From a virus (taxonomy: Duplodnaviria; Caudoviricetes), in IMG/VR virus record IMGVR_UViG_2933953506_000002, positions 1 to 64,000 of that record: 64,000 nt of DNA. The stretch is one strand, 5' to 3'. Below the pieces are notes generated by a model. That model did not search any database, was not told the origin of the DNA, and saw nothing but the letters and a program-made list of their open reading frames with translations. Numbering within the stretch: the stretch's first letter is position 1; the number at the start of each line of letters is the position of its first letter. Of this stretch, positions 1 to 57,170 are shown piece by piece. A program made the position numbers and the translations under genes.

Positions 1-423
1 TCAGATGACGTCGGTGACGTCGTAGAAGCTGGCCACGCCGCGCGTGAACCGCTCCGGGGCGAGCTGGAGCCGCGTGTGCCGGACTTCGTCGCGCACGGCC
101 TTCTCGTACGACAGCTCCGCCATGGCGCCCGTCTCGTGGTCGCTGGCCCAGTACCGCAGGACCGACCAGTAGTCGACGCCGTACCGGGTGCGCTGAGTCA
201 CCGGGTCGATGTACTCGACGAACCGGATGATCAGGACCGGCTTACCGTCCGCGCCGTTCACGACGGACTCTCGCTTGCCCTTCCCGCCGAGGATGTTGAA
301 GCGGTAGACGTCGGCCTGTTCGCGGGGGACGTCGGTGGGGGCGCTGGAGTTCAGCACGGTGCGCATCGGCCCGTACTGCGCGGTGAGCTGTTCCATGGGC
401 TTTACGGCCAGGACGGCGTTCAT
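1..423 (-). CDS. Hypothetical protein (MNAVLAVKPME..., 140 aa)
   Basis: ATG at 423 follows the repeated leader and its GAAGGA RBS; C-terminal part of ORF 1..873. Confidence 0.75.
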   Translation of the reverse strand: MNAVLAVKPMEQLTAQYGPMRTVLNSSAPTDVPREQADVYRFNILGGKGKRESVVNGADGKPVLIIRFVEYIDPVTQRTRYGVDYWSVLRYWASDHETGAMAELSYEKAVRDEVRHTRLQLAPERFTRGVASFYDVTDVI

Positions 424-432
424 CGGCGGTGT

Positions 433-495
433 TCCTTCCTTCGGGACGTTGGCGGTGCTCTCCGCCAACGAGGAAGACGGTACAGCAATGAGACT
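433..495 (-). promoter_or_regulatory. Class I leader module, copy 1
   Basis: Minus strand: AGTCTCATTGCTGTAC (495-480), CGTTGGCGG-AGAGCA-CCGCCAACG hairpin (470-447), GTCCCGAAGGAAGGA (447-433). Confidence 0.85.
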
Positions 496-532
496 CTCGT
501 GTGTAGTAGCCCCTACGAATAGGCGCAGTACG

Positions 533-575
533 CCCCCGCGAGTCTCCTTGCTGCTCCATTCGAGACTCGCGGGGG
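533..575. terminator. 14-bp perfect inverted repeat, probable terminator of the upstream minus-strand gene
   Basis: CCCCCGCGAGTCTC (533-546) / GAGACTCGCGGGGG (562-575), just past the stop at 597. Confidence 0.55.
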
Positions 576-596
576 AGCTGCCGAACGCGGGGCCGG

Positions 597-1386
597 TCAG
601 GCTGCGGTGCCGTACCAACCGGGGTCCTCCCGCCGTACGCCCGTCAGGAGGGAAACGACGGGCACCGGCACGGCCGTCGTTGGCACGCTCCCCGTCGGGG
701 CCGGCACAGACCGCGCGGTGACGTCCTGGACGGCGAACAACTCGCCCTGTTCCGGCTCCTCCGGCAGCATCCGGGCCAGGTGCGCGGCGACGCCCTCCTC
801 CACGGCTTCCGTCAGGTCGACGCCACCGACCTCCGCCCACACCTCGGCGGCCACAGTCCCGTGCTGCTCCCACAACGGCCGGGAGCTGTCACGCACCGGG
901 GAGTTCGGCACGCTCCCCCGCAGACCGCGCACCAGGGCGCTCAGGGCGTCCGCACGGAACTCCCGGGTCCGCACGCGCATGGGTGGACGCGTCCTCGTAC
1001 TCCAAGTGCGGCTCAGCGGCCACAGAACGCTTCCACGCCCCGAACACCCGGACCGCGCGGGTGGCGAGACCTTCCACGGCGTCCAACACCCGCGTCAGGG
1101 CCGCCAGGTACCGGGCCAGTGCCCGCGCGCCGCCCTGGACCGTCAGGCGCCGGTCGTCGAGTCCTCCGTACCGCTCATCGGTCCCGCACATCTCCTTGTA
1201 GTACGACCACCGGGGGTTCAGCTTGAAGGGGGTGGACGCCTCCACACCGTGGACGTCGGCCAGGGTCCACGCCACGTCGTGGTGCTGCTTCGCCCTGCGC
1301 TTCGACGCGGCGGGGAACACCAGGTCGACGGTGAACCGCCCGGGGGCCGACTCGTACGGGCGGGGGATCTCTACGTACGCGCTCAC
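597..1386 (-). pseudogene. Hypothetical gene split by a 1-nt frameshift near 981 (or sequencing error)
   Basis: ORF 889..1386 reads ...EYEDAST; removing one C from ACC-C-ATG joins it to ORF 597..980 (MRVRTREFRAD...). Confidence 0.55.
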
Positions 1387-1394
1387 GCGCTGGT

Positions 1395-1427
1395 TCCTTC
1401 CTCGGGGACGGCGGAAGCTCTCCGCCG
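1395..1427 (-). promoter_or_regulatory. Class I leader module, copy 2 (degenerate, no box)
   Basis: Minus strand CGGCGG-AGAGCTT-CCGCCG overlapping GTCCCCGAGGAAGGA; GTG at 1386. Confidence 0.65.
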
Positions 1428-1470
1428 CGGGGAGGCCGGCCGCGGGTCTGCGACCGGCACACTCAGGGGC

Positions 1471-1836
1471 TCAGCCGCAACGCAGCAACCGGGCCAGCCG
1501 GGACCGAAGGGACTGGACACGCCCCCGCCGCTCGTACGCCCGGACCATCGCGGCGACGTCGGCCGGGTCCGGCGAGTTGTGCCAGATCACCTTGATGACC
1601 AGGGCCTGACGCAGCTCCCCCGCCGGGCGGTCCATCAGCAGCACCGCGCCGTACCGGTCGGGCTTCCACAGCAGCCAGACGTGATCCGTCTCGGAGCTGC
1701 GCTCGAACTCCCCGGTGCGCATGGTCGGCGGGAGACCCAAGAGGCGGGCCACCTCGTCGGCGAACGACTCGAACGTGTACGGCGACGGCGCGGCGGCGGG
1801 CAGGTGCGAGTGGAGCCAGGACGGCAGCGGAGACAT
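1471..1836 (-). CDS. Hypothetical protein (MSPLPSWLHS..., 121 aa)
   Basis: GAGG upstream of ATG 1836; globular-looking sequence. Confidence 0.6.
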   Translation of the reverse strand: MSPLPSWLHSHLPAAAPSPYTFESFADEVARLLGLPPTMRTGEFERSSETDHVWLLWKPDRYGAVLLMDRPAGELRQALVIKVIWHNSPDPADVAAMVRAYERRGRVQSLRSRLARLLRCG

Positions 1837-2007
1837 GGGACTTCCTCGGAGCGGCGAACGGACCACGGCGGGCCCGGACGCCCAGACAGCGGGCAACAGG
1901 CAGACAGGCGGGGTTATGGGACTTCTGGGACCGTCCACACGCGCGCGGGCGCGCATGGGCCCGTGGGGCGCCGCCCGACCCCTCCGGCCGGGCGGCGCCG
2001 GGGCGGG

Positions 2008-3138
2008 TCAGGGACGGCGGTCGAGGACGTACTCGACGGGGACGGCGACGCGGATTCGGGAGCCGAACATGCGGCGGGTGTTCTCGGCGGCGTCCTCGCG
2101 GCCGTCCCGCTTGCGGAACTTCAGGACGATCGGCGGGTGCGCGGGGGCGTGCCCGATGGGCGAGTCCAGTCCGGCCGTGATCGTCGCAGTGACGGTCCAT
2201 CCGGTGCCGGAGTCGCTACGGCAGTGCACGCGCACGGTGGGCGTGCCGGTGGCGACGGCGGACAGCTCCTCGGGCGTGGCGTCGACGGCGTTGTACGCCA
2301 GGGCCGCGACGCGGATCTCCTCGGCGGTGCCGGGCATGTCCGTGCCGTGCATGCGGTGCGCGCGGGGGGCGACGGCCAGGATCGCCGCGCGGGCCCGCTC
2401 GACGGCGGTGCGCGCCTGGTCGTGGGCGGCGTTGCGGGCGGTGAGGTTGCGGGCGGTGCGCAGCACTTCCCACGCCTCCTCGACGGCGTTGTGGGACTCG
2501 ACGACTTCGAGGTGGTGCTCCGGGGCCGCGATCTTCCCCAGGGTGAACAGGTGCCGGGCGAGGTTGGCGAGGTCGCGGGGGGCACCACCGAGGGAGGCGT
2601 ACACGGTCGACTCGTACGCGGCCAGGGCGGCGTACAGGGTTGCGGTGTCCGGCGCGGCCGGGGCGGTCTCCTCGGCGGGGGCGGGACGCTCCTCGACGGC
2701 GGCCGGGCGCGGCATGCGCCACAGGCGGATGGAGACCGGCGCGCAGTTCCACAGGCGGCGCGTCTGCTGACGGTGGGAGAGGCGGACGGAGATGGCTTTC
2801 GTCAGGATCGGGTCCCAGCCGCGCGGGTCGTCGTCGCCGCCCTCGGTGATCTCGTCGCGGAGCGCGTGCACCTCGTCGGTGGTCATGTGGTGGAGCTGTT
2901 CGCGGATGGCCCAGTAGCGCTCATCCTCGGTGAAGATGACCCGGACGCGTTCCGATGCCGCCTTCTTCCGGATGATGCGGCGCACCATCTCCTTGTTCGC
3001 CTTGCCCTGCTCCTTGTCGGCGTCGCGGCTCATGACGGCGTCGACAAGGTCGTGGGTGATGACGCGGCCGTTGTGCTCCCTGGCAGCGATGAAGATCTGC
3101 AGCGCCATCCAGTCGGCGCGCTCCATGGCAGTGATCAC
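2008..3138 (-). CDS. Hypothetical protein, 376 aa
   Basis: High-GC3 ORF starting directly after leader copy 3. Confidence 0.75.
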   Translation of the reverse strand: MITAMERADWMALQIFIAAREHNGRVITHDLVDAVMSRDADKEQGKANKEMVRRIIRKKAASERVRVIFTEDERYWAIREQLHHMTTDEVHALRDEITEGGDDDPRGWDPILTKAISVRLSHRQQTRRLWNCAPVSIRLWRMPRPAAVEERPAPAEETAPAAPDTATLYAALAAYESTVYASLGGAPRDLANLARHLFTLGKIAAPEHHLEVVESHNAVEEAWEVLRTARNLTARNAAHDQARTAVERARAAILAVAPRAHRMHGTDMPGTAEEIRVAALAYNAVDATPEELSAVATGTPTVRVHCRSDSGTGWTVTATITAGLDSPIGHAPAHPPIVLKFRKRDGREDAAENTRRMFGSRIRVAVPVEYVLDRRP

Positions 3139-3145
3139 CGGGTGT

Positions 3146-3181
3146 TCCTTCGTTCGGGACGTCCCGGTTGCTCTCCGGGAC
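3146..3181 (-). promoter_or_regulatory. Class I leader module, copy 3
   Basis: Minus strand GTCCCGG-AGAGCAA-CCGGGAC then GTCCCGAACGAAGGA. Confidence 0.85.
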
Positions 3182-3253
3182 TGGGGTGGGGCGGTGCGCC
3201 CTGCGCCCGTTCCGGCGTGTGCCGGCCTCGAGGGCGGGGCGGACCGCCCCCCC

Positions 3254-3286
<33 letters not shown>

Positions 3287-3315
3287 CGGGCGCGGGGGCG
3301 GGGGGGGGGGGCGCC

Positions 3316-3350
<35 letters not shown>

Positions 3351-3383
3351 CCGGGGGAATGGCGGGCGGTGCGGGTCGGTGGG

Positions 3384-3755
3384 TCAGTCGTCCAGTCCGA
3401 GGCAGGCGCGCATCATGTCCTCGAACGTGCTGGGCACGGGGGAAATGAGCCGACGGGCCTTGAGGGCGGCGTCACCGGCGCTCACGGCGTGCACCTCGAC
3501 GTAGACCAGCTCGGGGGACTCGATGCACACCGCCTCGATGCCGAGGCGCTGGAGGCCCTGTTCCACGTCGTTGTCGGCGGCCCGCTCGACGGACAGGACG
3601 TCGATGCCGTCAGGGGTCTGGGGAGTCCACCGGCCCGTGGTGTCGGCGACGACGAAGAACGGGGCGGTGAACTTGCGGAGTTCTACGCGGTAGGCGGGGG
3701 CGCGGTCCATGTCTTCCGGGAGGGGTGCGGGGGTCTTGTCGAGGGACACGGGCAT
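3384..3755 (-). CDS. Hypothetical protein (MPVSLDKTPAP..., 123 aa)
   Basis: ATG 3755 follows leader copy 4. Confidence 0.7.
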   Translation of the reverse strand: MPVSLDKTPAPLPEDMDRAPAYRVELRKFTAPFFVVADTTGRWTPQTPDGIDVLSVERAADNDVEQGLQRLGIEAVCIESPELVYVEVHAVSAGDAALKARRLISPVPSTFEDMMRACLGLDD

Positions 3756-3762
3756 GGTGACT

Positions 3763-3839
3763 TCCTTCGTTCGGGACTGCCCCGGTTGCTCTCCGGGGCG
3801 CGGTGTGAACCACTGAGAGAACAGTACAGCAATACGACT
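3763..3839 (-). promoter_or_regulatory. Class I leader module, copy 4
   Basis: Minus strand box AGTCGTATTGCTGTAC (3839-3824), GCCCCGG-AGAGCAA-CCGGGGC, GTCCCGAACGAAGGA (3777-3763). Confidence 0.85.
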
Positions 3840-3907
3840 CGCGGGCAACAGGAACCCCGCAAGAATCCGTAAACATGCAGGTGGAGGCGCGCGCCCGTTC
3901 TCCGGTT

Positions 3908-4007
3908 AGTCTCATGGCTGTACTTTTTCGTGTCGGCTGTGTACGTTCTGGAGCCCCGCCACCCGGCGGCCCGGGGTCGAGCAACCCCGGGAGTCCCGAA
4001 CGAAGGA
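3908..4007 (+). promoter_or_regulatory. Class I leader module, copy 5 (divergent from copy 4)
   Basis: AGTCTCATGGCTGTAC (3908-3923), CCCGGGGT-CGAGCA-ACCCCGGG (3970-3991), GTCCCGAACGAAGGA (3993-4007). Confidence 0.85.
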
Positions 4008-4015
4008 TCACCAGC

Positions 4016-4528
4016 ATGCGCATGCCGCGCCTTCTCGCCCGTCGCCCCCGTCCCGCCGCGCTCCTGGCCGCTGGAGCCGCCGTGATCGCCCTCGGCACCC
4101 TGGGCACCCTCGGCGCCTCCGACGCCACCCCGGCCGACTTCGCGACCGCCCCCACTGCCACGCAGGCGGACGTGGTGGAGGCGTACAACGACGGCTGGAC
4201 CGACGGGCGCGCGGACCTGATGGGCGACGACAACCGGGACGGCTACGTCGACGAGGATGAGTCCGGTTGGGACTGCGCCACGATGGGCAACCGCCAGTGC
4301 GGCCCCGGGGTTCAGCCGCAGTGCAAGGGGGAGGACGAGTACGCCGACCTGTGCGCGACGGTAGCCGGGCGCCCGGCGTACGCCTGGACGGACGCCGATG
4401 GCACCCCGCACACCGTGGCGGCCGGGCGGAAGCTCCTCGCCCGGGTCGACGCCGTCCCGGGCACCGAGGAGTTCGCCGCCGCACTGTTCGCCCTGGACAC
4501 CCTGTGGGCGCAGCACAACGAGGACTGA
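4016..4528 (+). CDS. Secreted or membrane-anchored protein with acidic DDNRDGYVDEDE loop and Cys residues
   Basis: Basic N-terminus plus hydrophobic stretch; GDDNRDGYVDEDESGWDCATMGNRQCG. Confidence 0.75.
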   Translation: MRMPRLLARRPRPAALLAAGAAVIALGTLGTLGASDATPADFATAPTATQADVVEAYNDGWTDGRADLMGDDNRDGYVDEDESGWDCATMGNRQCGPGVQPQCKGEDEYADLCATVAGRPAYAWTDADGTPHTVAAGRKLLARVDAVPGTEEFAAALFALDTLWAQHNED

Positions 4529-4544
4529 CCGCCCGTTGACCCCA

Positions 4545-4573
4545 GCCGGGGGCGCACTGCTCGCGCCCCCGGC
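4545..4573 (+). repeat. Intergenic hairpin, 11-bp stem, ACTGCTC loop (copy A)
   Basis: GCCGGGGGCGC-ACTGCTC-GCGCCCCCGGC. Confidence 0.8.
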
Positions 4574-4596
4574 CTGGCCCCGGACAGGAGACCGCA

Positions 4597-4821
4597 GTGA
4601 CCGCCACCAAGCTCCCCGGGCGCAACTGGCTGCGCATGGTGCCCGCCGACTTCGACCGCGACGCCCCGGACGCCCCGGACGCTGCGGACCGCCCCGTCCC
4701 CGCCATCCCTGACGAGTGCGGCACCGTCCCGCTGTTCGGGGAGGAGTCGGCGGCCGCGCGCACCCCCGACGCCCGTATGCCGGCCGCGACGTTCCCCGAG
4801 CAAGCTGACACGCTGTTCTAG
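4597..4821 (+). CDS. Small hypothetical protein, 74 aa
   Basis: AGGAG RBS at 4586-4590, GTG start. Confidence 0.6.
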   Translation: MTATKLPGRNWLRMVPADFDRDAPDAPDAADRPVPAIPDECGTVPLFGEESAAARTPDARMPAATFPEQADTLF

Positions 4822-4931
4822 GCCACGATGACAGTGCAGCCGTGAGACTTCCGGCGCACGCCGTGAACCGCGGCGCTCCCCGTTCCACCTGCGAAATCTT
4901 CGATTCTTCCCGGGATCTTGCGGCGCCCAAG

Positions 4932-4995
4932 AGTCTCATTGCTGTACTATCAAGGGGTTGGCGGAGAGCACCGCCAACAAGTCCCGAACGAAGGA
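4932..4995 (+). promoter_or_regulatory. Class I leader module, copy 6
   Basis: AGTCTCATTGCTGTAC running into TACTAT, GTTGGCGG-AGAGCA-CCGCCAAC (4957-4978), GTCCCGAACGAAGGA (4981-4995); inverted box at 4834-4849. Confidence 0.9.
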
Positions 4996-5002
4996 TCACC
5001 CC

Positions 5003-5386
5003 ATGGCTTCTGTCGCCGCCCGCCGCGCACTCCGCGACCGCGTCCGCGCCCACCGCGCCGCCTCCGCCGCCCGTCGCGAAGTTGCCCGCGCCGCCCGCCG
5101 CGTCCGCCACACCGCCCGCTCCCTGGCCACGCACGTCATCGCCACCGGCGCCGACCGCGCGACCGTCAAGGGCGTCGTCAAGGCCCTCCAGGGCGTTGCC
5201 AAGACCGCCCGCACCAACGGCCTCAAGGGCAAGCGGGCCCGCATCCGCCGCACCGCCCAGGGCTTCAAGCGCCACGCCGTCACCGCCTACCGGTACACCC
5301 GCACCCAGGTCGCCCAGATCGCCGCGCAGTACAAGCCGCGCAAGGCCGAGTACAAGGCCGTCCGCGCCGCACTGATCGCCGCCTGA
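5003..5386 (+). CDS. Very basic Arg/Ala/Lys-rich protein, possibly nucleic-acid binding (127 aa)
   Basis: MASVAARRALRDRVRAH...; very strong GC3 codon bias; follows leader copy 6. Confidence 0.8.
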   Translation: MASVAARRALRDRVRAHRAASAARREVARAARRVRHTARSLATHVIATGADRATVKGVVKALQGVAKTARTNGLKGKRARIRRTAQGFKRHAVTAYRYTRTQVAQIAAQYKPRKAEYKAVRAALIAA

Positions 5387-5400
5387 CCGGCCGCCGGACC

Positions 5401-5434
5401 GCCGGGGCGCGGCCCTCCCCCGCCGCGCCCCGGC
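5401..5434 (+). terminator. 13-bp stem hairpin after 5003..5386
   Basis: GCCGGGGCGCGGC-N8-GCCGCGCCCCGGC. Confidence 0.5.
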
Positions 5435-5474
5435 ACCCCACCACACCCTTCACACCCCGTAGACGGAGACACCC

Positions 5475-6263
5475 ATGTCCTACGCCGCTTCCTCCGCCCA
5501 CCGCGCCGCCACGATCGCCACCATCGCCCGGACCCGCGCCGCATCCCCCGCGCCCATCCCGAACGCTGAGGGCCGCGCCGCGCTCACGAGGATCGCTGAC
5601 CTCCTGGACGCCGCCGCGGACGCCTTCCGGTCCTCCACTCCCGCCGTGATCGACGGCATCACCATGAACGAGATCCCGGCCGACGCCTGGTTCGCCCTCA
5701 CGGACGCTGAGAACATCGCGGCCAACACCCCCGCCGCCGGATTCCCGGTCACCCTTGGCCAGTACGTCACGCGCCGCCAGAACATCGACCTTCCCCCGTC
5801 GCTTCTCCCCGGCGGGCCCGTGCTGATCGCCAAGGAAGGCGACCTGTTCGCTCGGCTCCTCGCCCTCCACGGCCACCACCTGACCGCGACGACCACCACG
5901 GAGGAGAGCACCGCCGCCGCGCTGGAAGCCGCGTTCACCCTGCACTGGAAGCACGCCCGCCTCGCCGAGTCGGAAGCCCTCAAGACCGACCGCCCGGCCA
6001 ACCGGCCCGCCGTCCCGGCCGCCGTCGAGATCCCGACCCCGGGCACCACCATGGCGCTGCGCCGCGCTCACGAGGCGTACGGCCCGACCGTGACGTACGA
6101 GACCCACCGGCGCCTGCCGTGCCACGTCAGCGACCAGGGCGCCACGCACACCGCCGTCCGCATGGTCTCCCACTACGGCGCCACCATCGCCACCTGCGAC
6201 GACGACAGCCACCGCAACGCCGCCGCCGTCGCCGCGCGGGAGCTGTACGACTCCCTCGGCTGA
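5475..6263 (+). CDS. Hypothetical protein, 262 aa
   Basis: GGAG RBS, high-GC3 ORF. Confidence 0.75.
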   Translation: MSYAASSAHRAATIATIARTRAASPAPIPNAEGRAALTRIADLLDAAADAFRSSTPAVIDGITMNEIPADAWFALTDAENIAANTPAAGFPVTLGQYVTRRQNIDLPPSLLPGGPVLIAKEGDLFARLLALHGHHLTATTTTEESTAAALEAAFTLHWKHARLAESEALKTDRPANRPAVPAAVEIPTPGTTMALRRAHEAYGPTVTYETHRRLPCHVSDQGATHTAVRMVSHYGATIATCDDDSHRNAAAVAARELYDSLG

Positions 6264-6404
6264 CCAGCTCGCCGGGCGGGACGCGACACAAGCCGCTCCC
6301 GCCCGGCCCACTGGCCAACGGCCACACCGCCCGCCGCGCCCCGGGGCCGGACGTACGAGCCGCCCCCGGGCGCGACGCAAGCACCACCCGCATGACCACA
6401 TCAC

Positions 6405-6445
6405 CCGGCCGGAGAGCACCGCGCCGGAACGTCCCGAACGAAGGA
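6405..6445 (+). promoter_or_regulatory. Class I leader module, copy 7 (no box)
   Basis: CCGGCCGG-AGAGCA-CCGCGCCGG then GTCCCGAACGAAGGA (6431-6445). Confidence 0.85.
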
Positions 6446-6453
6446 ACACCGCA

Positions 6454-7284
6454 GTGACCGTGTCCGCCATCACCCCCGCCGAGTTCGCCGCGCCGCTCGC
6501 CGAGCTCCTGCCCGCCCGACAGGGCGCCCGCTGGATCGTCGGCCACGCCCCGTACAGCATCCGCAACAACGTCCCCACATCCCGGCTCACGAACGGCCGT
6601 CACGCCCTGATCGTGGCCGAGGAAGCGGGCCGCATCGAGGTCTTCGCCGACCGGCCCGGCATGTTCCCCGTCCACCCCGACGTGGTGGTCGACGCGACCG
6701 ACCCGGGCGCCATCGTGACGCTCGCCTCCCGCATGATGCTGTCCGTCCTCCCCGACCTCGACCACGACCAGGCGCACGAGACCGGCCGCACCAAGGGATG
6801 GGACCAGGTCCTCACCGACCGATGGGCGGAGCTGTCGGAAGTCGGGTACGCGCTGCTCGACCTCGGCGCAATCGTCACCACCGCCACGGGCGTGAACGGC
6901 CCCGGCCTGACGTGGAAGTCCGCCATGGGCGGGACGTGGGAGCTGTGGGCGTACGGCCAGGACCGGACCATCACCCTGACCTACGACGGGCCCGTGAGCG
7001 GCCTGTACGCCTTCCTGTCGATCGTCGGGACCCCGTACGGCGGACGCGACGAGGAGCGCGCCGGAAGCGCCTTCACGCGGCTCCTGACGGACCGCTTCAC
7101 CTGGCTCAGTCCGGTCGACGACCACGAGGTTCAGTTCGGCGCCCGCCGTTTCCCCTCCGGCTTCGTCGCACTCCCGTCGACGGACGAGCCCGCCGACCAC
7201 GCCGACGACACCCGGCGCGTGGTCGCCCAGGTCGGTGCCCTCGGTGTCGACCTGCTGCTCGCCACCACCACGCACCTGATCTGA
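6454..7284 (+). CDS. Hypothetical protein, paralog of the next gene
   Basis: 276 aa; follows leader copy 7. Confidence 0.8.
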   Translation: MTVSAITPAEFAAPLAELLPARQGARWIVGHAPYSIRNNVPTSRLTNGRHALIVAEEAGRIEVFADRPGMFPVHPDVVVDATDPGAIVTLASRMMLSVLPDLDHDQAHETGRTKGWDQVLTDRWAELSEVGYALLDLGAIVTTATGVNGPGLTWKSAMGGTWELWAYGQDRTITLTYDGPVSGLYAFLSIVGTPYGGRDEERAGSAFTRLLTDRFTWLSPVDDHEVQFGARRFPSGFVALPSTDEPADHADDTRRVVAQVGALGVDLLLATTTHLI

Positions 7285-7294
7285 CCCGCCGCCC

Positions 7295-7327
7295 GGCCGC
7301 GCCCCGGACTGCTCCCGGGGCGCGGCC
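7295..7327 (+). repeat. Intergenic hairpin, 13-bp stem, ACTGCTC loop (copy B)
   Basis: GGCCGCGCCCCGG-ACTGCTC-CCGGGGCGCGGCC. Confidence 0.85.
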
Positions 7328-7346
7328 CCCTCGAAAGGCCCTCGCC

Positions 7347-8210
7347 ATGACCCCGACCGCCATCGCCCCCGCCCGCCCCGTCTGCCCCGCCCAGACTCTC
7401 GCCGGACGCGTCGCCGCGCTCCTCCCGGAGCGCGCTGGCGTTCCGTGGACCGTCGAGCCGCACACCGCGTGGTGGACCGTCCGGTACCCCGCCGCCCGGC
7501 TGGTGCAGGGTGGCCGCGCCCTGGTCCTGGTCGCCCGCACCTGGGACACGCAGATTGGTTGGCAGCTCCCTGACCGCGAGCCGACCCGCCCCGACCTCCA
7601 CCTCGAGAGCATGAGCCCGGCCGTCATCGCGCGTGACGTGCTGCGCCTGGTCCTGCCCGTCCTCGACGACGAGGCCGCCGGGCGCGCCGCGAAGGACGGC
7701 CCGCGCGTGATGGGGCGGCTGGAGCTGCTGAACGAGATCGGGCACGCGATGCGCATGCAGGGCGCGGCGACGTACAACCGGATCGGTCTCCTGCCGAACA
7801 CGTCCACCCTCGCTTGGGCCGCGCCGTCCGGCGCCCGGTACTCCGTCACCCTGCATGGCACGAACCCCGTGGCCGACGTCCAGATACAGGGCCCGGTGCG
7901 CGCCGTCGAGAAGGCCGTGACCTGCTTCCTGCCCCCGGCCGCCGACGGGCGCCCTCAGATCCCCCGCGTCCGCGGCCGTCTGCAGCGCCGCCTGGCCGCC
8001 GTCCTCGCCCGGCACGGGCACGTCGAGCAGACCGACCAGGGCGGACTCGCGTTCAGCACCGGCCCCGGCCCCGGCCCCGGCCCGTACGGGTACGCCACCC
8101 CGGCCCTCGACCCCGTGGCCCGCGCACACGACACGACCCCGGCGTCCATCGACCTCCACGGCATCGGCGCGGACTTCCTGATCTCCCTCGCCCCGCAGCT
8201 CTGCCGCTGA
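7347..8210 (+). CDS. Hypothetical protein (MTPTAIAPARP...), paralog of the previous gene
   Basis: GAAAGG RBS; AALLPERAGVPWTV...RLVQGGRALVL aligns with AELLPARQGARWIV...RLTNGRHALIV. Confidence 0.8.
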   Translation: MTPTAIAPARPVCPAQTLAGRVAALLPERAGVPWTVEPHTAWWTVRYPAARLVQGGRALVLVARTWDTQIGWQLPDREPTRPDLHLESMSPAVIARDVLRLVLPVLDDEAAGRAAKDGPRVMGRLELLNEIGHAMRMQGAATYNRIGLLPNTSTLAWAAPSGARYSVTLHGTNPVADVQIQGPVRAVEKAVTCFLPPAADGRPQIPRVRGRLQRRLAAVLARHGHVEQTDQGGLAFSTGPGPGPGPYGYATPALDPVARAHDTTPASIDLHGIGADFLISLAPQLCR

Positions 8211-8273
8211 CCCACCCCGGCGCCCCGAGGCCGGCCGGGGGGCGCACCCCACCTCTGGAAGGACACACCACCC

Positions 8274-8804
8274 GTGAGCACTGCCCCCCTGACCCCGATC
8301 TCCGCCCTGGACGACGCCATAGCGAAGGCGTGCGCCGCGGCGAAAGCGATGCTGCCGCTCATCGGCACGACCCTGCACGCCCAGTTCCCGACCGGCGCGT
8401 ACCTCGTGCTGACCCGGCCGGTCGACTACGACACCGACTACGACTCGGTGCGCCTGGACTCCGTCCGTGACATCGAGGGCAACACCGTGCACGAGTTCGA
8501 CGAGTGGGCGAAGGACGCCCCGGAACTCCCCGCGGTGCCCGACGAAATCACCGCCCTGTGGGGCACCGCCGACCCGCGCAACCCGAGCGAGGTCCTGAAC
8601 CTGATCCAACGCGTCGACGAGGTCGAGCCGTACCAGTTCCTCGCGTTCCTGCCCGAGGAGCTGCGCACGGACGAGGAGATCGAGGCGGAGGACTCGGGCG
8701 GCCGTACGCCGCTGGGCATCCCGCTCGCCCCGGCCGTCTGCGTGCTGCACGGCGAGGAGTGCCCGGTGTTTGGCCACGCCGAGCCGCCCGTGCCCGTCGA
8801 CTGA
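8274..8804 (+). CDS. Acidic hypothetical protein, 176 aa
   Basis: GAAGGA upstream, GTG start, high GC3. Confidence 0.75.
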   Translation: MSTAPLTPISALDDAIAKACAAAKAMLPLIGTTLHAQFPTGAYLVLTRPVDYDTDYDSVRLDSVRDIEGNTVHEFDEWAKDAPELPAVPDEITALWGTADPRNPSEVLNLIQRVDEVEPYQFLAFLPEELRTDEEIEAEDSGGRTPLGIPLAPAVCVLHGEECPVFGHAEPPVPVD

Positions 8805-8857
8805 CCGGCCGTCCCGAGGCGCCGGTGTCACAGACCGGCGTCCCTGCCCGTTCCCTT

Positions 8858-8886
8858 CCGCGCCCGGCACTGCTCGCCGGGCGCGG
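8858..8886 (+). repeat. Intergenic hairpin, 11-bp stem, ACTGCTC loop (copy C)
   Basis: CCGCGCCCGGC-ACTGCTC-GCCGGGCGCGG. Confidence 0.8.
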
Positions 8887-8908
8887 CCCAACCCACTGGA
8901 GAGACCAC

Positions 8909-9619
8909 ATGCCCACGCACAAGCCGACCCGTGAGCACCGCCCCGGCGAAGACCCGCTGCCCGACGAGCGGCTGGCGGAGATCCGCGCCGCCGCGGGCAC
9001 ACCGGAGGTGCGCGATCTGCTCGGGGAGCTGGACCGCGTCCGCGCGCTGCTGAGCACCACCCTGGAGGCGAACGGCACGCTCCTCAACAACTGGGCCCGG
9101 CTGGAGGGCGTAGCCCCGCACCCGTTCCTCGGTGTGTTCTGCCGGACGTGCCGCGCCGAGGTGCAGGTGGGCACGGAGGGGTGCCCGCGGCACTCGCCCA
9201 CGGTGATCGGTCGCGCCCTGTACGCGATGCACGCGGAGAACCGGTCGCTCCTCGACGCGGAGGAGGCGGGCAACCGCGCGGTCGCGATGCTGGACGCGGC
9301 GCTGCCGCTGCTCGCCGCGGTGCTGAACCCGGTGGACCACAAGGAGGGGTGCCGCCCGCACGACTGCCGGTGTGCGTGCGACCGGCGGCAGAACTGCCAG
9401 GACTGCCACCGGTGCGTGTGCTGGCGGTCGGAGTGCTGCGCCGAGAAGGCGATCCGGTGGCACGCCGAGGACCGGTGGGCGCGGCTCGTCGCCGAGGCCG
9501 GCCTCGGGGCCGAGGGGTCCGGCGCCGACGCCGAGGGCCCGCGGTGCGCGGTGTGCCTGACCCCGATCTCCGAGCACGCCGGGCGGCACTGCGAGCGCCC
9601 GGCCACCCGGTACTGCTGA
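8909..9619 (+). CDS. Cys/His-rich hypothetical protein, probably metal binding
   Basis: GGAG RBS; CRTC, CRPHDCRCACDRRQNCQDCHRCVCWRSECC, CAVC. Confidence 0.7.
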   Translation: MPTHKPTREHRPGEDPLPDERLAEIRAAAGTPEVRDLLGELDRVRALLSTTLEANGTLLNNWARLEGVAPHPFLGVFCRTCRAEVQVGTEGCPRHSPTVIGRALYAMHAENRSLLDAEEAGNRAVAMLDAALPLLAAVLNPVDHKEGCRPHDCRCACDRRQNCQDCHRCVCWRSECCAEKAIRWHAEDRWARLVAEAGLGAEGSGADAEGPRCAVCLTPISEHAGRHCERPATRYC

Positions 9620-9722
9620 GCGTTGCGCCCGGTCCCGTTCGTCCACGGGGTCGGGCGCACTCGTGATTGATGGTGCAGCCGTGAGACTCGCACGAACATT
9701 TTCCCTGTTCTCCTATTGCGTG

Positions 9723-9787
9723 AGTCTCATTGCTGTACTGTTCGGGGTGTTGGTGGAGAGCAGCCGCCGACAGTCCCGAACGAAGGA
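9723..9787 (+). promoter_or_regulatory. Class I leader module, copy 8
   Basis: AGTCTCATTGCTGTAC (9723-9738), TGTTGGTGG-AGAGCAG-CCGCCGACA with two G.U pairs, GTCCCGAACGAAGGA (9773-9787); inverted box at 9673-9688. Confidence 0.9.
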
Positions 9788-9795
9788 ACGCCGCA

Positions 9796-11127
9796 ATGAG
9801 GACCCTCCCGGCCAAGGTTCAGACCGCCGTCCACGTCGCCACGCTCGCTCGCAAGGCCGGTCTGCCCATCCCCGCCAAGGTGCTCCCGGTCCTCGAAGAG
9901 GCCGCCGCCCCGTGGCCTGCCGAGTGGCTCCTCGCCCCGCTCCCCGGTGACCCGATCCGTGTCGTCGAACTGTTCGCGGGCCCCGGCGGCTGGTCCGAGG
10001 GCATCGCCGCCGTCCTCGGCGTGGCCGTCGACTCCTGCGGCGTCGACATCTCCCCGGACGCCTGCGCCACCGCCCGCGCCGCCGGTCACCGCCGGATCTG
10101 CGCCGACATCACCACCCTCGACCCCGAGCACATCGCGCTGCGCCACACCGCCGCCGTCATCGTCAGCCCGCCGTGCCCCACCTTCTCGCCCGGCGGCAAG
10201 CTCTCCGGCCTGGAGCTGGGCAACATCCAGACCCTCGGCGACGCCATCGCCTACGTCGGCGAGACCGCCGGGTTCATCCCCATGGACTGGCACCACAGCG
10301 ACTACGACGACGGCGAGTGCGAGTGCGACCCGGACGCCCCCGACGGCAAGGGATGCCACGGCGACGGCTTCGCCCCCCGCTCCGGCGCCACCTGGGACGA
10401 GGTCCGCGAGATGGCCGCGGGCGTCAGTGACCCGCGCATCGCGCTCATGCTCGAGGTCGCCATCTGGCCGATCGCCCTGCAGGCCGCCGGTGCGCCGATC
10501 CGCTGGATGGCCATGGAGCAGTCCAGCAACCTGCCCGAGGAGATCATCAGCGACCTGACCATCGAGTTCCAGTGCGCTGAGTGGTTCTACACCAGCCACG
10601 AGATCAAGGAGGCCGCCGACTACGGCCTGCCGTCCCGCCGCAAGCGCGTCTACATGATCGCCTCCCGCTCCTACTCCCCCACCGTCACCCGCTGCATCCG
10701 CCCGCTGCCCTCCACCACCATGGCGCAGGCCCTCGGCTGGCAGCCGGGGGAGCGCGTCAACACCCGCGGCAACCGCCCCGTCGACCCGAAGACCGGCCGC
10801 GCCAAGGGCGGCAACGCGTTCTCCGCCGACGGCCCGTCCTGGTGCCTCACTGGCAAGTCCCGCACCTGGAAGCGTGAGAGCGACGGGTACCGCCTCACGG
10901 AGGCCGAGGCCGGGCTGCTCGTCGGGTTCCGCCGCTCCTACCCGTGGCAGGGAAGCCGCTCCAGCGCCTTCCAGCAGGCCGCCGACGTCGTCTCACCGGT
11001 CATGGCCGCGATCGTCCTCAGCGGCGTCCTGGGCGGTCTCGGCGAGGCTCTGGTGCGCGACTACCTCGCCCAGCTCTACGACATGGACGACATGCTCAGC
11101 CCGGACGACTACGACCTGGTCAGCTAG
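9796..11127 (+). CDS. Orphan DNA (cytosine-5)-methyltransferase
   Basis: Motif I ELFAGPGG, catalytic SPPCPTFS, motif VIII SRRKRVY, motif IX/X-like RLTEAEAGLLVGF...QQAADVV. Confidence 0.9.
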   Translation: MRTLPAKVQTAVHVATLARKAGLPIPAKVLPVLEEAAAPWPAEWLLAPLPGDPIRVVELFAGPGGWSEGIAAVLGVAVDSCGVDISPDACATARAAGHRRICADITTLDPEHIALRHTAAVIVSPPCPTFSPGGKLSGLELGNIQTLGDAIAYVGETAGFIPMDWHHSDYDDGECECDPDAPDGKGCHGDGFAPRSGATWDEVREMAAGVSDPRIALMLEVAIWPIALQAAGAPIRWMAMEQSSNLPEEIISDLTIEFQCAEWFYTSHEIKEAADYGLPSRRKRVYMIASRSYSPTVTRCIRPLPSTTMAQALGWQPGERVNTRGNRPVDPKTGRAKGGNAFSADGPSWCLTGKSRTWKRESDGYRLTEAEAGLLVGFRRSYPWQGSRSSAFQQAADVVSPVMAAIVLSGVLGGLGEALVRDYLAQLYDMDDMLSPDDYDLVS

Positions 11128-18533: not shown

Positions 18534-20015
18534 GTGGCGGCAACGAACCTCGCCCCCGCCGGGCAGGAAGCCCTGATACCTGTGGAGGAGCTGACGGGCC
18601 CCGAGCCGGTCGTGCACTGCGCGGACGCCCTCGACCACCTTCGGACCCTCCCCGATGCCTCCGTGGACGCGGTCGTGACCGATCCGCCGTACGAGTTGGG
18701 GTTTCTCGGGAAGGCGTGGGACGCCTCCGGCATCGCGTACAGCGTGGACATGTGGGCGGAGTGCTTCCGCGTCCTCAAACCGGGCGGGCACCTGGCCGCG
18801 TTCGGCGCGACCCGCACCTACCACCGCATGGCCGTGGCCGTCGAGGACGCCGGATTCGAGATCCGTGACTCCCTGCACTGGCTGTACGGCACCGGCTTCC
18901 CCAAGGGACAGGACGTCGGGAAGCTGATCGACCGGCGCCGCGACGACCACCCCGCCCGCCGCCGCTTCACCGCCGAGTTCGCCGCGCTCCGCGACTCCGT
19001 CGGCTGGACGAACCCGCAGATCGACGCCCTGTTCGGCTTCAACGGCATGGCGCAGCACTGGACGACACAGAGCAAGACCGCCGCCGTCCCGACCGTCGAG
19101 CAGTGGGAGCAGTTGAAGGCAGAGATGGGGTTCGAGGCCCCGATCAGCGTCGAGGACCTGGTGCACGAGCTGAACGGGCGGAAGAACGCGCCCGGGGAGG
19201 CGTGGGAGGACCGGGAGGTCATCGGCAAGGGGCACCGGGCCCGGGGCGGCTCCGGGGTGTTCCCACAGCTCCAGTCCGAGACGTTCGACGTGACCGCCCC
19301 GGCGACCGCCGAGGCCGCTCGCTGGGACGGCTGGAACACCGCCCTCAAGCCCGGCCATGAGCCGATCGTCCTGGCGCGGAAGCCACTCGACGGCACGGTC
19401 GCCTCCAACGTCCTGGCGTACGGCACCGGCGCGATGAACACCGCAGCGTGCAAGACCCCGCCCGGCGACGCGGAGGGGCGTTGGCCGACCAACGTGCTGC
19501 TGTCGCACGCGTGGGCCATCGACGAGGCGGGATGGATCGTCGACGGCTGCGCGGACGGCTGCGCGGAGGGGTGCCCGGCCGCCGAGCTGGACGGCCAGTC
19601 GGGGCGGCTCACCTCCGGGGCGAACCCGCGGCGCCGCGGTTCGGACAAGTTCCGCGACGTGTACGGCGACTTCAAGGGCCAGACCGCGTGCAAGCCGGTC
19701 CGGGGCGCGGACTCCGGCGGCGCCTCCCGCTTCTACCCGGCGTTCCGCTACCAGGCCAAGGCCCCCACCAGTGAGCGGCCGCGGCTGCCGGACGGCACCG
19801 TGCACCCCACGGTGAAGCCGGTCGCGCTGATGCGCTGGCTGGTCCGGCTGCTCACCGCGCCCGGCGGGATCGTCCTGGACCCGTTCGCCGGTACCGGAAC
19901 GACGCTCGAGGCCGCCCGGCTGGAGGGCTTCGACTCCATGGGCGTGGAGGCCAAGGCCGAGTACGCCGAGCTGTGCCGTCTCCGGCTGCGCCGCGAGACC
20001 GTGAGGAGCAACTGA
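18534..20015 (+). CDS. Phage-type N6-adenine/N4-cytosine DNA methyltransferase (beta class)
   Basis: VTDPPY near N-terminus, RVLKPGG, HPTVKP, LDPFAGTGTT near C-terminus. Confidence 0.92.
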   Translation: MAATNLAPAGQEALIPVEELTGPEPVVHCADALDHLRTLPDASVDAVVTDPPYELGFLGKAWDASGIAYSVDMWAECFRVLKPGGHLAAFGATRTYHRMAVAVEDAGFEIRDSLHWLYGTGFPKGQDVGKLIDRRRDDHPARRRFTAEFAALRDSVGWTNPQIDALFGFNGMAQHWTTQSKTAAVPTVEQWEQLKAEMGFEAPISVEDLVHELNGRKNAPGEAWEDREVIGKGHRARGGSGVFPQLQSETFDVTAPATAEAARWDGWNTALKPGHEPIVLARKPLDGTVASNVLAYGTGAMNTAACKTPPGDAEGRWPTNVLLSHAWAIDEAGWIVDGCADGCAEGCPAAELDGQSGRLTSGANPRRRGSDKFRDVYGDFKGQTACKPVRGADSGGASRFYPAFRYQAKAPTSERPRLPDGTVHPTVKPVALMRWLVRLLTAPGGIVLDPFAGTGTTLEAARLEGFDSMGVEAKAEYAELCRLRLRRETVRSN

Positions 20016-30859: not shown

Positions 30860-32029
30860 TCACCTCTGCGTTTTGCCCTCCGGGTCGTGCATCGGGACCT
30901 TCTTGAAGGGGTCCTTGGACGGGTCCTTTGCCGGGCGTACGTACCTTTCCCGAGGGATGCGCGAGCCCTTCTTCCACCGGCCAGCCAGCTCGAGTTCTTC
31001 GTCCGTCGCGCCGTTCATACCGAGGTCGGTGGCGCCGCCGGCGCGAAGGCTATGGGAGGACACGGGGCGGCCGTCGGTCTTGAGCCCGGCCGCCGCGAAC
31101 CACAACTTCACGCGCTCATTGACAGTCTGCGGGCGCAGGTGGGCACCGCGCTTGGTGGCCCCCCGCCTCGCCCGTGTCTCCGACGATGCGACCTTGCCGC
31201 TCCGTAGAACCTCGCGGAATACGGGGCCGGTGGTGATGCCCTGCTCGGCGAGATAGCCAACCCAACGGCGCAGCCGGAAGATCAGGTTGAGGTCCGGCCG
31301 GTCATGAAGGACGAGCGTCTGTTCCTCACCCTTGTGGGTCTTGTCCTCGGCGAGCCACACCAACACGCGGTCGTCGAGGATGGTCACGTCCTCGAGCTCC
31401 AGGTCGACATCCTCGACACTTCGGCCGAGGAACCGGTATCCGAAGGCGAACATCGCCGAGTCGCGCCAGCCGATCGGTCGGTCGCCAGCCTCCGCCTTCT
31501 CCATCATCGGGACCAGGTACGGCAGCGTGATGGGGAACGCTTCCTTTCTGCGTAGCGCTCGCTTGTTCTTCTTCCGGTACTGCGTCAGGAGCAGCAGGAA
31601 CAGGCTGTTGTCCGGCTTCTTCCCGGGCGGCATGGACGTCCGGATCAGCGACATGTAGTGCCGGATCGTGGTGACCTTGAGCTGCCTCGCCATAAGGTGA
31701 CGGCCGTACTCTGTGTACGTCGCCGTCGTGCAGGGCTTCGCCACCCGCCCCTGTTCCGCACACCATGCCTCGAACAGGCCCATGGCGGTCCGGCGCTGAG
31801 GCGATCCCTCCTCCTCGGCCTCCTTGAGGGCCTGGGCGGTCTCCTCGCTGACATACAGGTCCCGATCCGTGTACGTCGTGCGTGGATCGTCACTGGTTGG
31901 GATGGACTCGCCGGGCATCAACACTGTGTGCTCGTCGACGAGCGGACGGGCAGTCGGCGCCGCGGGCACCAGTTCCCCGTCCTCGACGAGTTCGGCGTCA
32001 ATGATCTCGTGGGTATCACGCAGGCTCAT
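30860..32029 (-). CDS. Tyrosine recombinase (Cre/XerD-like)
   Basis: RDSAMF...LGRSVE (R), KTHK (K), HSLR, GRW, RYVR (Y). Confidence 0.9.
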   Translation of the reverse strand: MSLRDTHEIIDAELVEDGELVPAAPTARPLVDEHTVLMPGESIPTSDDPRTTYTDRDLYVSEETAQALKEAEEEGSPQRRTAMGLFEAWCAEQGRVAKPCTTATYTEYGRHLMARQLKVTTIRHYMSLIRTSMPPGKKPDNSLFLLLLTQYRKKNKRALRRKEAFPITLPYLVPMMEKAEAGDRPIGWRDSAMFAFGYRFLGRSVEDVDLELEDVTILDDRVLVWLAEDKTHKGEEQTLVLHDRPDLNLIFRLRRWVGYLAEQGITTGPVFREVLRSGKVASSETRARRGATKRGAHLRPQTVNERVKLWFAAAGLKTDGRPVSSHSLRAGGATDLGMNGATDEELELAGRWKKGSRIPRERYVRPAKDPSKDPFKKVPMHDPEGKTQR

Positions 32030-38849: not shown

Positions 38850-39092
38850 GTGATATCTCCCCTGTCCGTCCTTATCCCGTCCCTGGCCGCGGACGCCGCC
38901 CACGACGCCGCACATCAGACGCACGCGCAGTTCCGGCACGGCGTCTACTCCGTGCCGTGCGGGACGTGCCACGTCCCGGCCGGCGAACTGTGCCTATCCC
39001 GGCGCGCCGTGCACCCCGCCCGCCGGGACCTGTACCGGAAGAACCAGGAGGCCACCACGCTGGTGCCCCTACTGGTGGGGCGCGTCCGATGA
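38850..39092 (+). CDS. Small zinc-finger protein
   Basis: VPCGTCHVPAGELC...HPAR; GTGA-coupled to a 25-aa ORF at 38776. Confidence 0.6.
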   Translation: MISPLSVLIPSLAADAAHDAAHQTHAQFRHGVYSVPCGTCHVPAGELCLSRRAVHPARRDLYRKNQEATTLVPLLVGRVR

Positions 39093-57132: not shown

Positions 57133-57163
57133 CGCGACGCTAACCACCCGCACTGTGCATGGT
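57133..57163 (+). promoter_or_regulatory. Class II promoter motif, copy 7 (leaderless giant gene)
   Basis: CGCGACGCTAA-N14-CATGGT, then 7 nt to ATG 57171. Confidence 0.75.
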
Positions 57164-57170
57164 CCGCGCC

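Follow-up and report, generated by a model that had tools for sequence, protein, structure and literature searches.

Why should eight genes on both strands at one end of a phage genome all begin behind a small hairpin with almost the same loop, followed by almost the same 15 nucleotides? The question arises in the first 64 kb of the Caudoviricetes record IMGVR_UViG_2933953506_000002, a single contig of 115,774 bp with 69% G+C; we call this 64,000-nt stretch the window. Each copy of the leader consists, 5' to 3' on the strand of its gene, of a stem, a loop, the stretch CCCGAACGAAGGA and a start codon, preceded in some copies by a promoter-like sequence termed here the P box. [quoted passage not shown] Its best overall explanation, to which we assign a probability of roughly 0.55, would be a cis-acting mRNA leader read by a trans-acting factor.

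Ten copies of the leader lie in one arc of the genome

The exact 15-mer GTCCCGAACGAAGGA occurs six times at the left end of the window, a seventh copy has one mismatch and an eighth has three (Table 1), each with a start codon 6–9 nt downstream. Allowing up to three mismatches, the window held 12 matches compared with 3.54 +/- 1.89 expected, a number reached in 0 of 100 shuffles. The sites, stems, loops and starts given by the first-pass annotation all match the sequence, including two U.G pairs in TGTTGGTGG/CCGCCGACA. Its count of eight was right in that all eight exist, but was too low for the genome: a covariance model built from 119 copies and run over all 115,774 bp returned ten copies, reported as E below 4e-4, with the next best hit at 12.5 bits. 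Seven of the eight window copies scored 48–59 bits, and the degenerate copy at 1395–1438 scored 19.1 bits (E 4e-4). The two further copies lie beyond the window at genome positions 102807–102853(-) (47.2 bits) and 104608–104660(-) (27.8 bits). Relatives carry 7 (in an 83%-complete record), 14, 15, 16 and 17 modules.

With the record taken as circular, all ten copies fall within one 23-kb arc running from 102.8 kb through the record ends to 9.8 kb, and all are in sense orientation to their genes; the covariance model found no module in the other 93 kb, which includes the portal-to-tail region. An eleventh, split version at 107.6–107.76 kb(-) has a P box and a GCTGGG-AGAGCGA-CCCAGC hairpin, followed about 100 nt past the hairpin by a degenerate ribosome-binding site (RBS) motif before an ATG.

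Compensatory changes point to a structure on the sense strand

Copies from relatives were gathered by pattern scans (46 genome loci, 43 of them from Streptomyces records, plus 17 and 6 viral loci), and sites chosen by the 13-mer CCCGAACGAAGGA gave 150 distinct instances. Three loci from non-Streptomyces metagenome bins (L036, L041 and L057) and two viral loci (L072 and L073) were without hairpin or start context; they were treated as chance matches and removed before counting. One further copy with a 12-nt spacer (L005) was left out of the main alignment, A1, which thus comprised 119 of 120 listed copies.

In A1, aligned with MAFFT, 90.9% of cells in a 7-bp helix were paired, compared with 66.1% when partners were shuffled, and the covariation score was 0.484 compared with 0.138; neither value was reached in 500 shuffles. 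Cells with changes on both sides of a pair numbered 175 versus 58.5 after shuffling, and sliding the partner by 1–3 columns held the covariation score at or below 0.149. RNAalifold predicted the same helix unaided, and a model-fitted alignment of 140 distinct rows (A3), which leans towards structure, gave 97.0% paired versus 65.5% shuffled. Double compensatory changes also occurred within groups of orthologous leaders: a G-C pair became C-G in the leader of the Sak4-like gene, U-A became C-G among the orthologues of the 376-aa gene, and one pair of the methyltransferase leader ran through U.G, C-G and U-A. Further independent examples within such groups are TGCGCGGG/CCCGCGCG against TCCGCGGG/CCCGCGGA, and GTCCCGG/CCGGGAC against GCCCCGG/CCGGGGC.

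The mismatched cells indicated which strand folds. There were 70 G.U and 14 A.C cells overall, and 35 and 3, respectively, in the six loop-proximal pairs. A palindrome acting as double-stranded DNA would give the two in equal numbers; since G.U on the sense strand is A.C on the other, the excess of G.U implies that the sense strand is the one that folds. The first-pass annotation had proposed selection on an RNA or single-stranded DNA structure, and the co-varying stems, together with this excess, bear out selection on a sense-strand structure. They suggest a structure that acts as RNA, single-stranded sense DNA being less likely, and we think it probable, on these sequence patterns, that the element acts after transcription.

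These data bear directly on whether the inverted repeat could instead be part of a promoter or operator bound by a DNA-binding protein. That has been argued for Cluster K ESAS, whose repeats were judged not to pair as RNA, with DNA-binding proteins favoured, in the part of the description compared here (PMC3203893); the ESAS of phage Adephagia contain putative promoters, according to the corresponding part of a later study (PMC11373665), and the present modules often adjoin a promoter-like box. However, a sequence-specific duplex binder would be expected to conserve its half-sites, whereas here 64 stem sequences occur with pairing kept by compensation. The 35-to-3 ratio of G.U to A.C in the inner six pairs also stands against it, and the module itself has no TANNNT hexamer. 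We therefore regard a DNA-level element as distinctly improbable.

A fixed loop precedes an over-conserved ribosome-binding stretch

The stem is 5–10 bp long and free in sequence, closed by two G-C pairs, with 64 different stem pairs among the 150 distinct instances. In contrast, the loop is the most conserved part of the module, with the consensus (A/C/U)GAGCA(A/G). Among 116 strictly scored hairpins the loop was AGAGCA in 66, AGAGCAA in 31 (97/116 for the two), AGAGCAG in seven, CGAGCA in five, TGAGCA in three and another sequence in four, in a collection whose fetch patterns included part of the loop and whose A1 subset was filtered for GAGC. The same loop recurred when copies in two complete genomes were chosen solely by their RBS side. 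In two relatives whose modules were found by the model, the complete virus G002 (16 modules) and the cultured phage Gilgamesh, all loops were AGAGCA or AGAGCAA; the loop is kept there alongside a different promoter box and a different RBS-side motif (CCGAA(N)CGAAGGA, ACCACGAAGGA). The sequence GGAG is conserved at the stem–loop junction.

The hairpin is separated from CCCGAACGAAGGA by 0–7 nt (mode 3), often with ACACC directly after the motif. Within this stretch the Shine–Dalgarno sequence is GAAGGA, of moderate strength, and the CCCGAAC upstream of it has no known pairing partner at the 3' end of 16S rRNA. In 127 of 135 distinct copies an open reading frame (ORF) of at least 50 codons opens 3–12 nt after GGA, with a mode of 7–8 nt, using ATG in 89, GTG in 34 and TTG in four, so that the tie to start codons noted in the eight window copies extends across the family.

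The leader of the DUF2637 gene (genome 104608–104700(-), L004 4608–4700) contains a second, longer conserved element, ..GACGCTATATCGTTTGGTCGACCCGG..CATGAGCATA.., in which GAGCA would lie in a larger loop followed by CCCGAACGAAGGG. This element is nearly unchanged across relatives (L011, L015, L016, L018, L032, L039, L053, L067, L076 and L078).

A promoter-like box would place the hairpin at the 5' end of some transcripts

Five of the eight window copies have upstream a feature that the first-pass annotation had missed: a conserved 18-nt P box, GAGTCTCATTGCTGTACT, ending in a -10-like hexamer TANNNT. A P-like octamer accompanies 58 of 135 distinct copies, and in 32 of these 58 the hexamer ends 15–17 nt before the GAGC of the loop, which puts its end about 6 nt ahead of the stem. 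Given the usual distance from a -10 element to the transcription start, the transcript would then begin at the foot of the hairpin. A scan with the sigma-70 consensus found no promoter. In Gilgamesh and G002 another box, CGTTTCC-N-TGGTGTACT, stands before the same -10-like TACTRT. The P box often occurs as an inverted pair, 32–80 bp apart, and in three cases the partner copy (4 mismatches) faces away from any gene start. From this arrangement it looks like a promoter that a phage-specific repressor may also use as operator half-site.

A hairpin at the 5' end could serve expression without any factor: it would shield the mRNA from 5'-end-dependent RNases while the A-rich 13-mer served as a good, unstructured RBS, and such a cassette would have spread and been kept for high, reliable expression in a genome of 70% G+C. 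Stem-loops at 5' ends stabilise bacterial mRNAs, the placement of 32 of the 58 P-associated hairpins about 6 nt after the -10-like hexamer would make them 5'-terminal, and the 7–8 nt to the start codon is an optimal RBS spacing. However, a stabiliser needs no fixed loop, yet the loop is what is best conserved across the family. Three of the eight window copies lie inside operons without a P box and two others are 24–45 nt from theirs, the conserved CCCGAAC lacks a 16S partner, and predicted RBS accessibility did not change when the upstream 32 nt were shuffled. We consider this explanation unlikely.

The copies inside operons also raise the possibility of a processing or decay tag, in which a phage or host endoribonuclease would recognise the loop or the base of the stem and release monocistronic mRNAs or bring about a later shut-off. 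T4 RegB cuts GGAG, Cas6 cuts at repeat hairpins, and RNase III sites lie between T7 early genes; modules 2, 3 and 7, within operons and without a promoter box, resemble those T7 sites, and the GGAG conserved at the stem–loop junction is the RegB target sequence. Yet stems of 5–10 bp are too short for RNase III, and the proteins scanned yielded no candidate for a nuclease. A tag of this type seems to us improbable.

The leader marks non-structural genes of a likely phage-plasmid family

The ten module-headed genes encode a C-5 cytosine methyltransferase, a Sak4/AAA_24-like protein and a DUF2637 protein (the last two headed by the copies outside the window), a basic 127-aa protein, one protein of unknown function with only a PHROGs match, and five proteins without a match in Pfam, PHROGs or NCBIfam. 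Judged from the module spacing, the DUF2637 gene would start at an in-frame TTG that lies 8 nt past the motif. The first-pass view of these genes as nearly all orphans plus a C5 methyltransferase thus agrees with the family scans, and 'orphan regulon' is a fair description.

For seven of the module-headed genes a homologue was found in G002, and in five cases that homologue too has a module directly upstream; the two exceptions are homologues of the genes with the two weakest modules in the source genome. Where corresponding positions are occupied by non-homologous genes, these too can be headed by a module, as has been reported for SAS. A scan of three whole Streptomyces genomes placed every hit at E up to 1e-5 inside a single element per genome (a 117-kb chromosome stretch or one contig of 126–128 kb), and five of 151 Streptomyces species genomes sampled had a hit at 1e-8 with 41 candidates scored in each. 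The motif is phage-specific and lacking from the host chromosomes searched. Rfam 15, to which the first-pass annotation had pointed as the place to look for a known family, gave no match at gathering thresholds in the 64-kb window and none at E up to 1 in positions 1–10200. We found no description of the motif in the titles and abstracts screened, and the 13-mer string occurred in no paper searched, with about 1.7 million PubMed Central (PMC) articles outside that search.

The relatives are filed variously as circular plasmid, cultured phage, terminal-repeat virus and prophage (CP108533, CP109288, MN234216, G002), with elements of 115–132 kb. They include the circular 'plasmids' CP108533 and CP109288 (126–130 kb); Gilgamesh, a phage of 129 kb that was isolated on S. 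lividans and whose annotation lists a sigma factor and a ParA-like gene; G002, a complete IMG/VR virus that measures 131.8 kb and has direct terminal repeats; and a copy integrated within a 10-Mb Streptomyces chromosome. G002 is syntenic end to end with the source genome (149 ORF-level tblastn hits). The family is large, and likely one of phage-plasmids. No paper on Gilgamesh itself was found in the literature searched.

A proposed mRNA leader read by a trans-acting factor

We propose that the leader would work as an RNA stem-loop in which the stem may have any sequence and two successive closing G-C pairs present a fixed AGAGCA or AGAGCAA loop. A few nucleotides later, the over-conserved ribosome-binding stretch CCCGAACGAAGGA(ACACC) would set the start codon 7–8 nt after GGA. 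For roughly half of the copies, a transcript predicted to start from the P box would have the hairpin, which begins about 6 nt past the -10-like box, at its very 5' end as a cap; the remaining copies lie inside operons. The loop, probably with the adjoining CCCGAAC, would be read by a trans-acting factor, most likely a putative protein encoded by this phage family. Through this factor one signal would set translation initiation and/or mRNA lifetime for all marked non-structural genes, that is, the methyltransferase, replication and recombination genes and the orphans.

The fixed loop suggests that the hairpin is not there for stability alone, since stability needs no fixed loop. That the element works by binding a dedicated factor we put at slightly below even odds. 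More tentatively, the AGAGCA hairpin and 13-mer could be the RNA operator of a dedicated RNA-binding regulator or nuclease of the widespread 115–132-kb Streptomyces phage-plasmid family, which would time or gate translation of the whole non-structural set after entry.

Several points weigh against a factor-read leader. The pair counts come largely from related copies, and their cells are not independent events. The measured loop invariance is partly built in, because the fetch patterns and the A1 filter contained loop letters. Host-genome scans scored 41–150 candidates per genome, and absence there means 'not found in those searched'. The word 'early' for the marked genes is a guess from position and gene content, and 'regulon' likewise draws on gene content and position; a look through 24 sequencing runs found no RNA run containing the region. 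The predicted unpaired probability from 13-mer to start was 0.51–0.61 in nine copies and stayed at 0.51–0.61 after shuffling of the 32 nt upstream; no obvious thermodynamic effect on the Shine–Dalgarno site follows from the structure, and the idea that the hairpin acts as an insulator holding the RBS open is not supported by these values. Finally, no homologue of the protein considered below as a candidate factor was found in G002, with its 16 modules, or in another module-bearing genome, G128.

That protein, the very basic module-headed 127-aa P0001, has a predicted Arg-rich N-terminal helix of 33 residues (4–36) with ten invariant or nearly invariant arginines, then a small alpha/beta domain (AlphaFold model, mean predicted local distance difference test 85.8). 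Most of its 88 homologues lie on Streptomyces contigs of 121–132 kb, across dozens of assemblies, and it is conserved in Gilgamesh; it was found in three of five module-bearing genomes. No Pfam relative was found, a sequence search of the PDB gave a best E of 1.1, and Foldseek against the PDB returned nothing at E up to 0.001. Phage YDN12, which has a distant homologue, has no convincing module (best 15 bits). P0001 was rejected as the loop-binding protein because searches did not find it in the module-rich G002 or in G128, YDN12 has no convincing module, and no informative relative was found.

A protein of this type is also what nut-like antitermination would call for: P0001, or another arginine-rich protein resembling N, would bind a boxB-like hairpin. 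The fixed loop, the free stem, the position downstream of promoter-like boxes and the conserved Arg-rich helix of P0001 all fit. However, a genome holds 10–17 copies and each is locked to a start codon, where a nut system would have one or two in an operon; no P0001 homologue turned up in G002; and no terminator-like sites were found in 1–10200. We hold this to be very unlikely.

Least probable of all, to the point of being barely credible, is that the hairpins are single-stranded DNA promoters for an injected polymerase from the virion, in the manner of phage N4. The hairpin is strand-specific with a variable stem, and an ORF of 5,686 aa adjoins the portal gene, but the loops have 6–7 nt and not the 3 nt generally known for N4. 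The giant ORF matches DarB-like antirestriction protein (phrog_10089, E 8e-178), with N6-methylase and SNF2 helicase parts; no polymerase match was found in it, though its final ~2,600 residues have no match at all. An N4-like polymerase in this ORF was set aside on the DarB-like assignment. A leader RNA read by a trans-acting factor remains the explanation we prefer.

Genome context

Among the proteins encoded by the record are those of portal and capsid, a prohead protease–NUDIX fusion and an amidase endolysin, as well as a small terminase subunit, ParB-like, replication-initiator-like and Sak4-like proteins and a DnaC/IstB-like ATPase. A long ORF is likely the tape measure, judged from size and place. 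Two genes belong to integrase families, one with a Pfam match; the gene at the end of the record reads as a tyrosine integrase from its C-terminal sequence. On this content (structural, replication, partition, integrase and DarB-like genes), the record is, by predicted gene functions, a large temperate Streptomyces siphovirus-like element. The DarB-like ORF occupies 57159–64000 of the window and continues to genome position 74219.

The window also holds the second integrase-family gene (30860–32029(-)), an N6/N4 DNA methylase (18534–20015(+)), a TauD-family dioxygenase (47651–48553(+)) and a small phage zinc-finger protein (38850–39092(+)). The record's first bases (window 1–3) form exactly the stop codon of a leftward gene, and its last bases (genome 115772–115774) are exactly the stop codon of the gene read as a tyrosine integrase. 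Because both ends coincide with stop codons, they probably reflect trimming at the borders of genes, not natural termini. Between two module-headed genes, window 3231–3362 is a run of roughly 8 C and 40 G, then mixed G/C, then some 35 C. Contigs of sequencing run X1, a possible source of this DNA, cover 2900–3230 and 3363–3700, and none spans the poly-G/poly-C stretch, which may be an assembly artefact or a G/C palindrome that is hard to sequence.

Table 1. Leader modules, module-headed genes and P-box copies, in window coordinates unless marked as genome
Feature	Position	Strand	Details
Leader module 1	433..478	-	Hairpin CGTTGGCGG-AGAGCA-CCGCCAACG (447-470); 58.8 bits; start ATG 423
Variant 15-mer of module 1, GTCCCGAAGGAAGGA	433-447	-	1 mismatch; 1-nt overlap with hairpin
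Leader module 2, degenerate	1395..1438	-	GGCGG-AGAGCTT-CCGCC + GTCCCCGAGGAAGGA (15-mer 1395-1409, 3 mismatches); 19.1 bits; start GTG 1386; no P box
Leader module 3, inside operon	3146..3191	-	GTCCCGG-AGAGCAA-CCGGGAC + exact 15-mer (3146-3160); 56.1 bits; start GTG 3138; no P box
Leader module 4	3763..3809	-	GCCCCGG-AGAGCAA-CCGGGGC + exact 15-mer (3763-3777); 59 bits; start ATG 3755
Leader module 5	3961..4007	+	CCCGGGGT-CGAGCA-ACCCCGGG (3970-3991) + exact 15-mer (3993-4007); 48.2 bits; start ATG 4016
Leader module 6	4948..4995	+	GTTGGCGG-AGAGCA-CCGCCAAC (4957-4978) + exact 15-mer (4981-4995); 56.5 bits; start ATG 5003
Leader module 7	6396..6445	+	Bulged hairpin CCGGCCGG-AGAGCA-CCGCGCCGG (6405-6427) + exact 15-mer (6431-6445); 51.8 bits; start GTG 6454; no P box
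Leader module 8	9740..9787	+	TGTTGGTGG-AGAGCAG-CCGCCGACA (9748-9772, two U.G pairs) + exact 15-mer (9773-9787); 55.1 bits; start ATG 9796
Module-headed gene, 140 aa	1..423	-	No family match
Module-headed gene, 165 aa	889..1386	-	No family match; 70-74% identical to G002 and Gilgamesh homologues
Module-headed gene, 376 aa	2008..3138	-	No family match
Module-headed gene, 123 aa	3384..3755	-	No family match
Module-headed gene, 170 aa	4016..4528	+	phrog_1148 (unknown function)
Module-headed gene, 127 aa, P0001	5003..5386	+	phrog_10890 (unknown function); very basic
Module-headed gene, 276 aa	6454..7284	+	No family match
Module-headed gene, 443 aa, C-5 cytosine DNA methyltransferase	9796..11127	+	Pfam PF00145 E 2.9e-16; phrog_116
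P box, GAGTCTCATTGCTGTACC	479..496	-	1 mismatch; 8 nt upstream of hairpin 1
P-box copy	540-557	+	
P box, leftward operon	3823..3840	-	2 mismatches; divergent from 3907-3924
P box, rightward operon	3907..3924	+	2 mismatches; 45 nt upstream of hairpin 5
P-box copy	4833-4850	-	
P box	4931..4948	+	Exact; -10-like TACTAT ends 6 nt before hairpin 6
P-box copy	9672-9689	-	Inverted partial copy of 9722-9739
P box	9722..9739	+	Exact
P-box copy	102875-102892 (genome)	+	
P-box copy	107744-107761 (genome)	-	

Comparison with known systems

The lambda nut site combines boxA with a boxB hairpin bound by N, at one or two sites per operon. Like the present module it pairs a hairpin of fixed loop and free stem with a conserved linear element, downstream of early promoters; unlike it, nut is not tied to start codons, its elements come in the reverse order, and the N-like candidate P0001 was not found in G002. 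The ompA leader, T7 RNase III sites and T4 RegB targets are likewise structured elements at mRNA 5' ends or between cistrons that set stability or processing, but none of them is known to combine a fixed loop, a free stem, an over-conserved RBS and many copies. The CUP repeats of IncN plasmids, an upstream element repeated before several establishment genes, are longer DNA repeats with promoters and operators and are not known as short co-varying hairpins.

Cluster EF Microbacterium phages have a 13-nt motif, GGGAAAGGACCCC, in ten copies at the RBS position, each linked to an upstream element in which conservation is weak apart from GTAGAG at its centre, which is very well conserved, according to the part of their description used here (PMC7302621). 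Compared by text description, this agrees with a stem of variable sequence enclosing a fixed loop, as around AGAGCA in the present module; in contrast, that part of the description reports no hairpin or covariation (PMC7302621).

The closest parallel comes from Cluster K mycobacteriophages with their SAS and ESAS, for which we drew on parts of the 2011 description (PMC3203893), a study of Adephagia (PMC11373665) and a survey of 188 genomes (PMC12699233). The SAS is a 13-nt asymmetric motif at the RBS position, 3–9 nt ahead of the start codon, with the consensus GGGATAGGAGCCC, up to two mismatches from which define an SAS (PMC3203893, PMC12699233). The ESAS consists of two imperfect 17-bp inverted repeats of conserved sequence, 4–14 bp apart, that do not support RNA pairing (PMC3203893). 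In the passages compared, the function of SAS was still called unknown in 2024–2025 (PMC11373665, PMC12699233).

The analogy to Cluster K, made in the first-pass annotation, proved apt. In both, an over-conserved 13-nt motif a few nucleotides before starts extends beyond Shine–Dalgarno pairing and recurs in 11–19 copies of one orientation in the non-structural half, before unrelated gene families, and an inverted repeat and putative promoter lie just upstream in about half of the copies. Applied to the source genome, the published SAS features are present: the motif stands 3–12 nt before the start (127/135, mode 7–8), with at least 10 copies, in one orientation and before non-structural genes only. 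For the promoter of the ESAS, a TANNNT box lies upstream of five of eight window copies and 58/135 overall, and the sigma-70 consensus scan found none. The motif itself is CCCGAACGAAGGA here and GGGATAGGAGCCC there, and the module is therefore an analogue and not an SAS member by the published definition. Whereas the ESAS arms, as described in the text compared, are 17 bp long and conserved in sequence, the arms here are 5–10 bp, occur in 64 sequences and co-vary (90.9% paired) around a fixed loop. Cluster K phages also differ in having Mycobacterium hosts and genomes of about 60 kb.

SAS have been catalogued in actinobacteriophages since 2011, and the Streptomyces version is the first with clear covariation of the RNA type. 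This covariation defines precise arm, compensatory and loop mutants, and the natural alignment is large, with more than 140 distinct copies and a cultured relative, Gilgamesh, on S. lividans. The module also marks out a sizeable, barely described Streptomyces phage-plasmid family, and its compact combination of promoter, 5' hairpin and RBS may serve expression in high-G+C hosts. If the leader is indeed the RNA operator of a dedicated factor, it would be the first SAS system with demonstrable RNA structure, and could answer what SAS and ESAS do, a question open since 2011.

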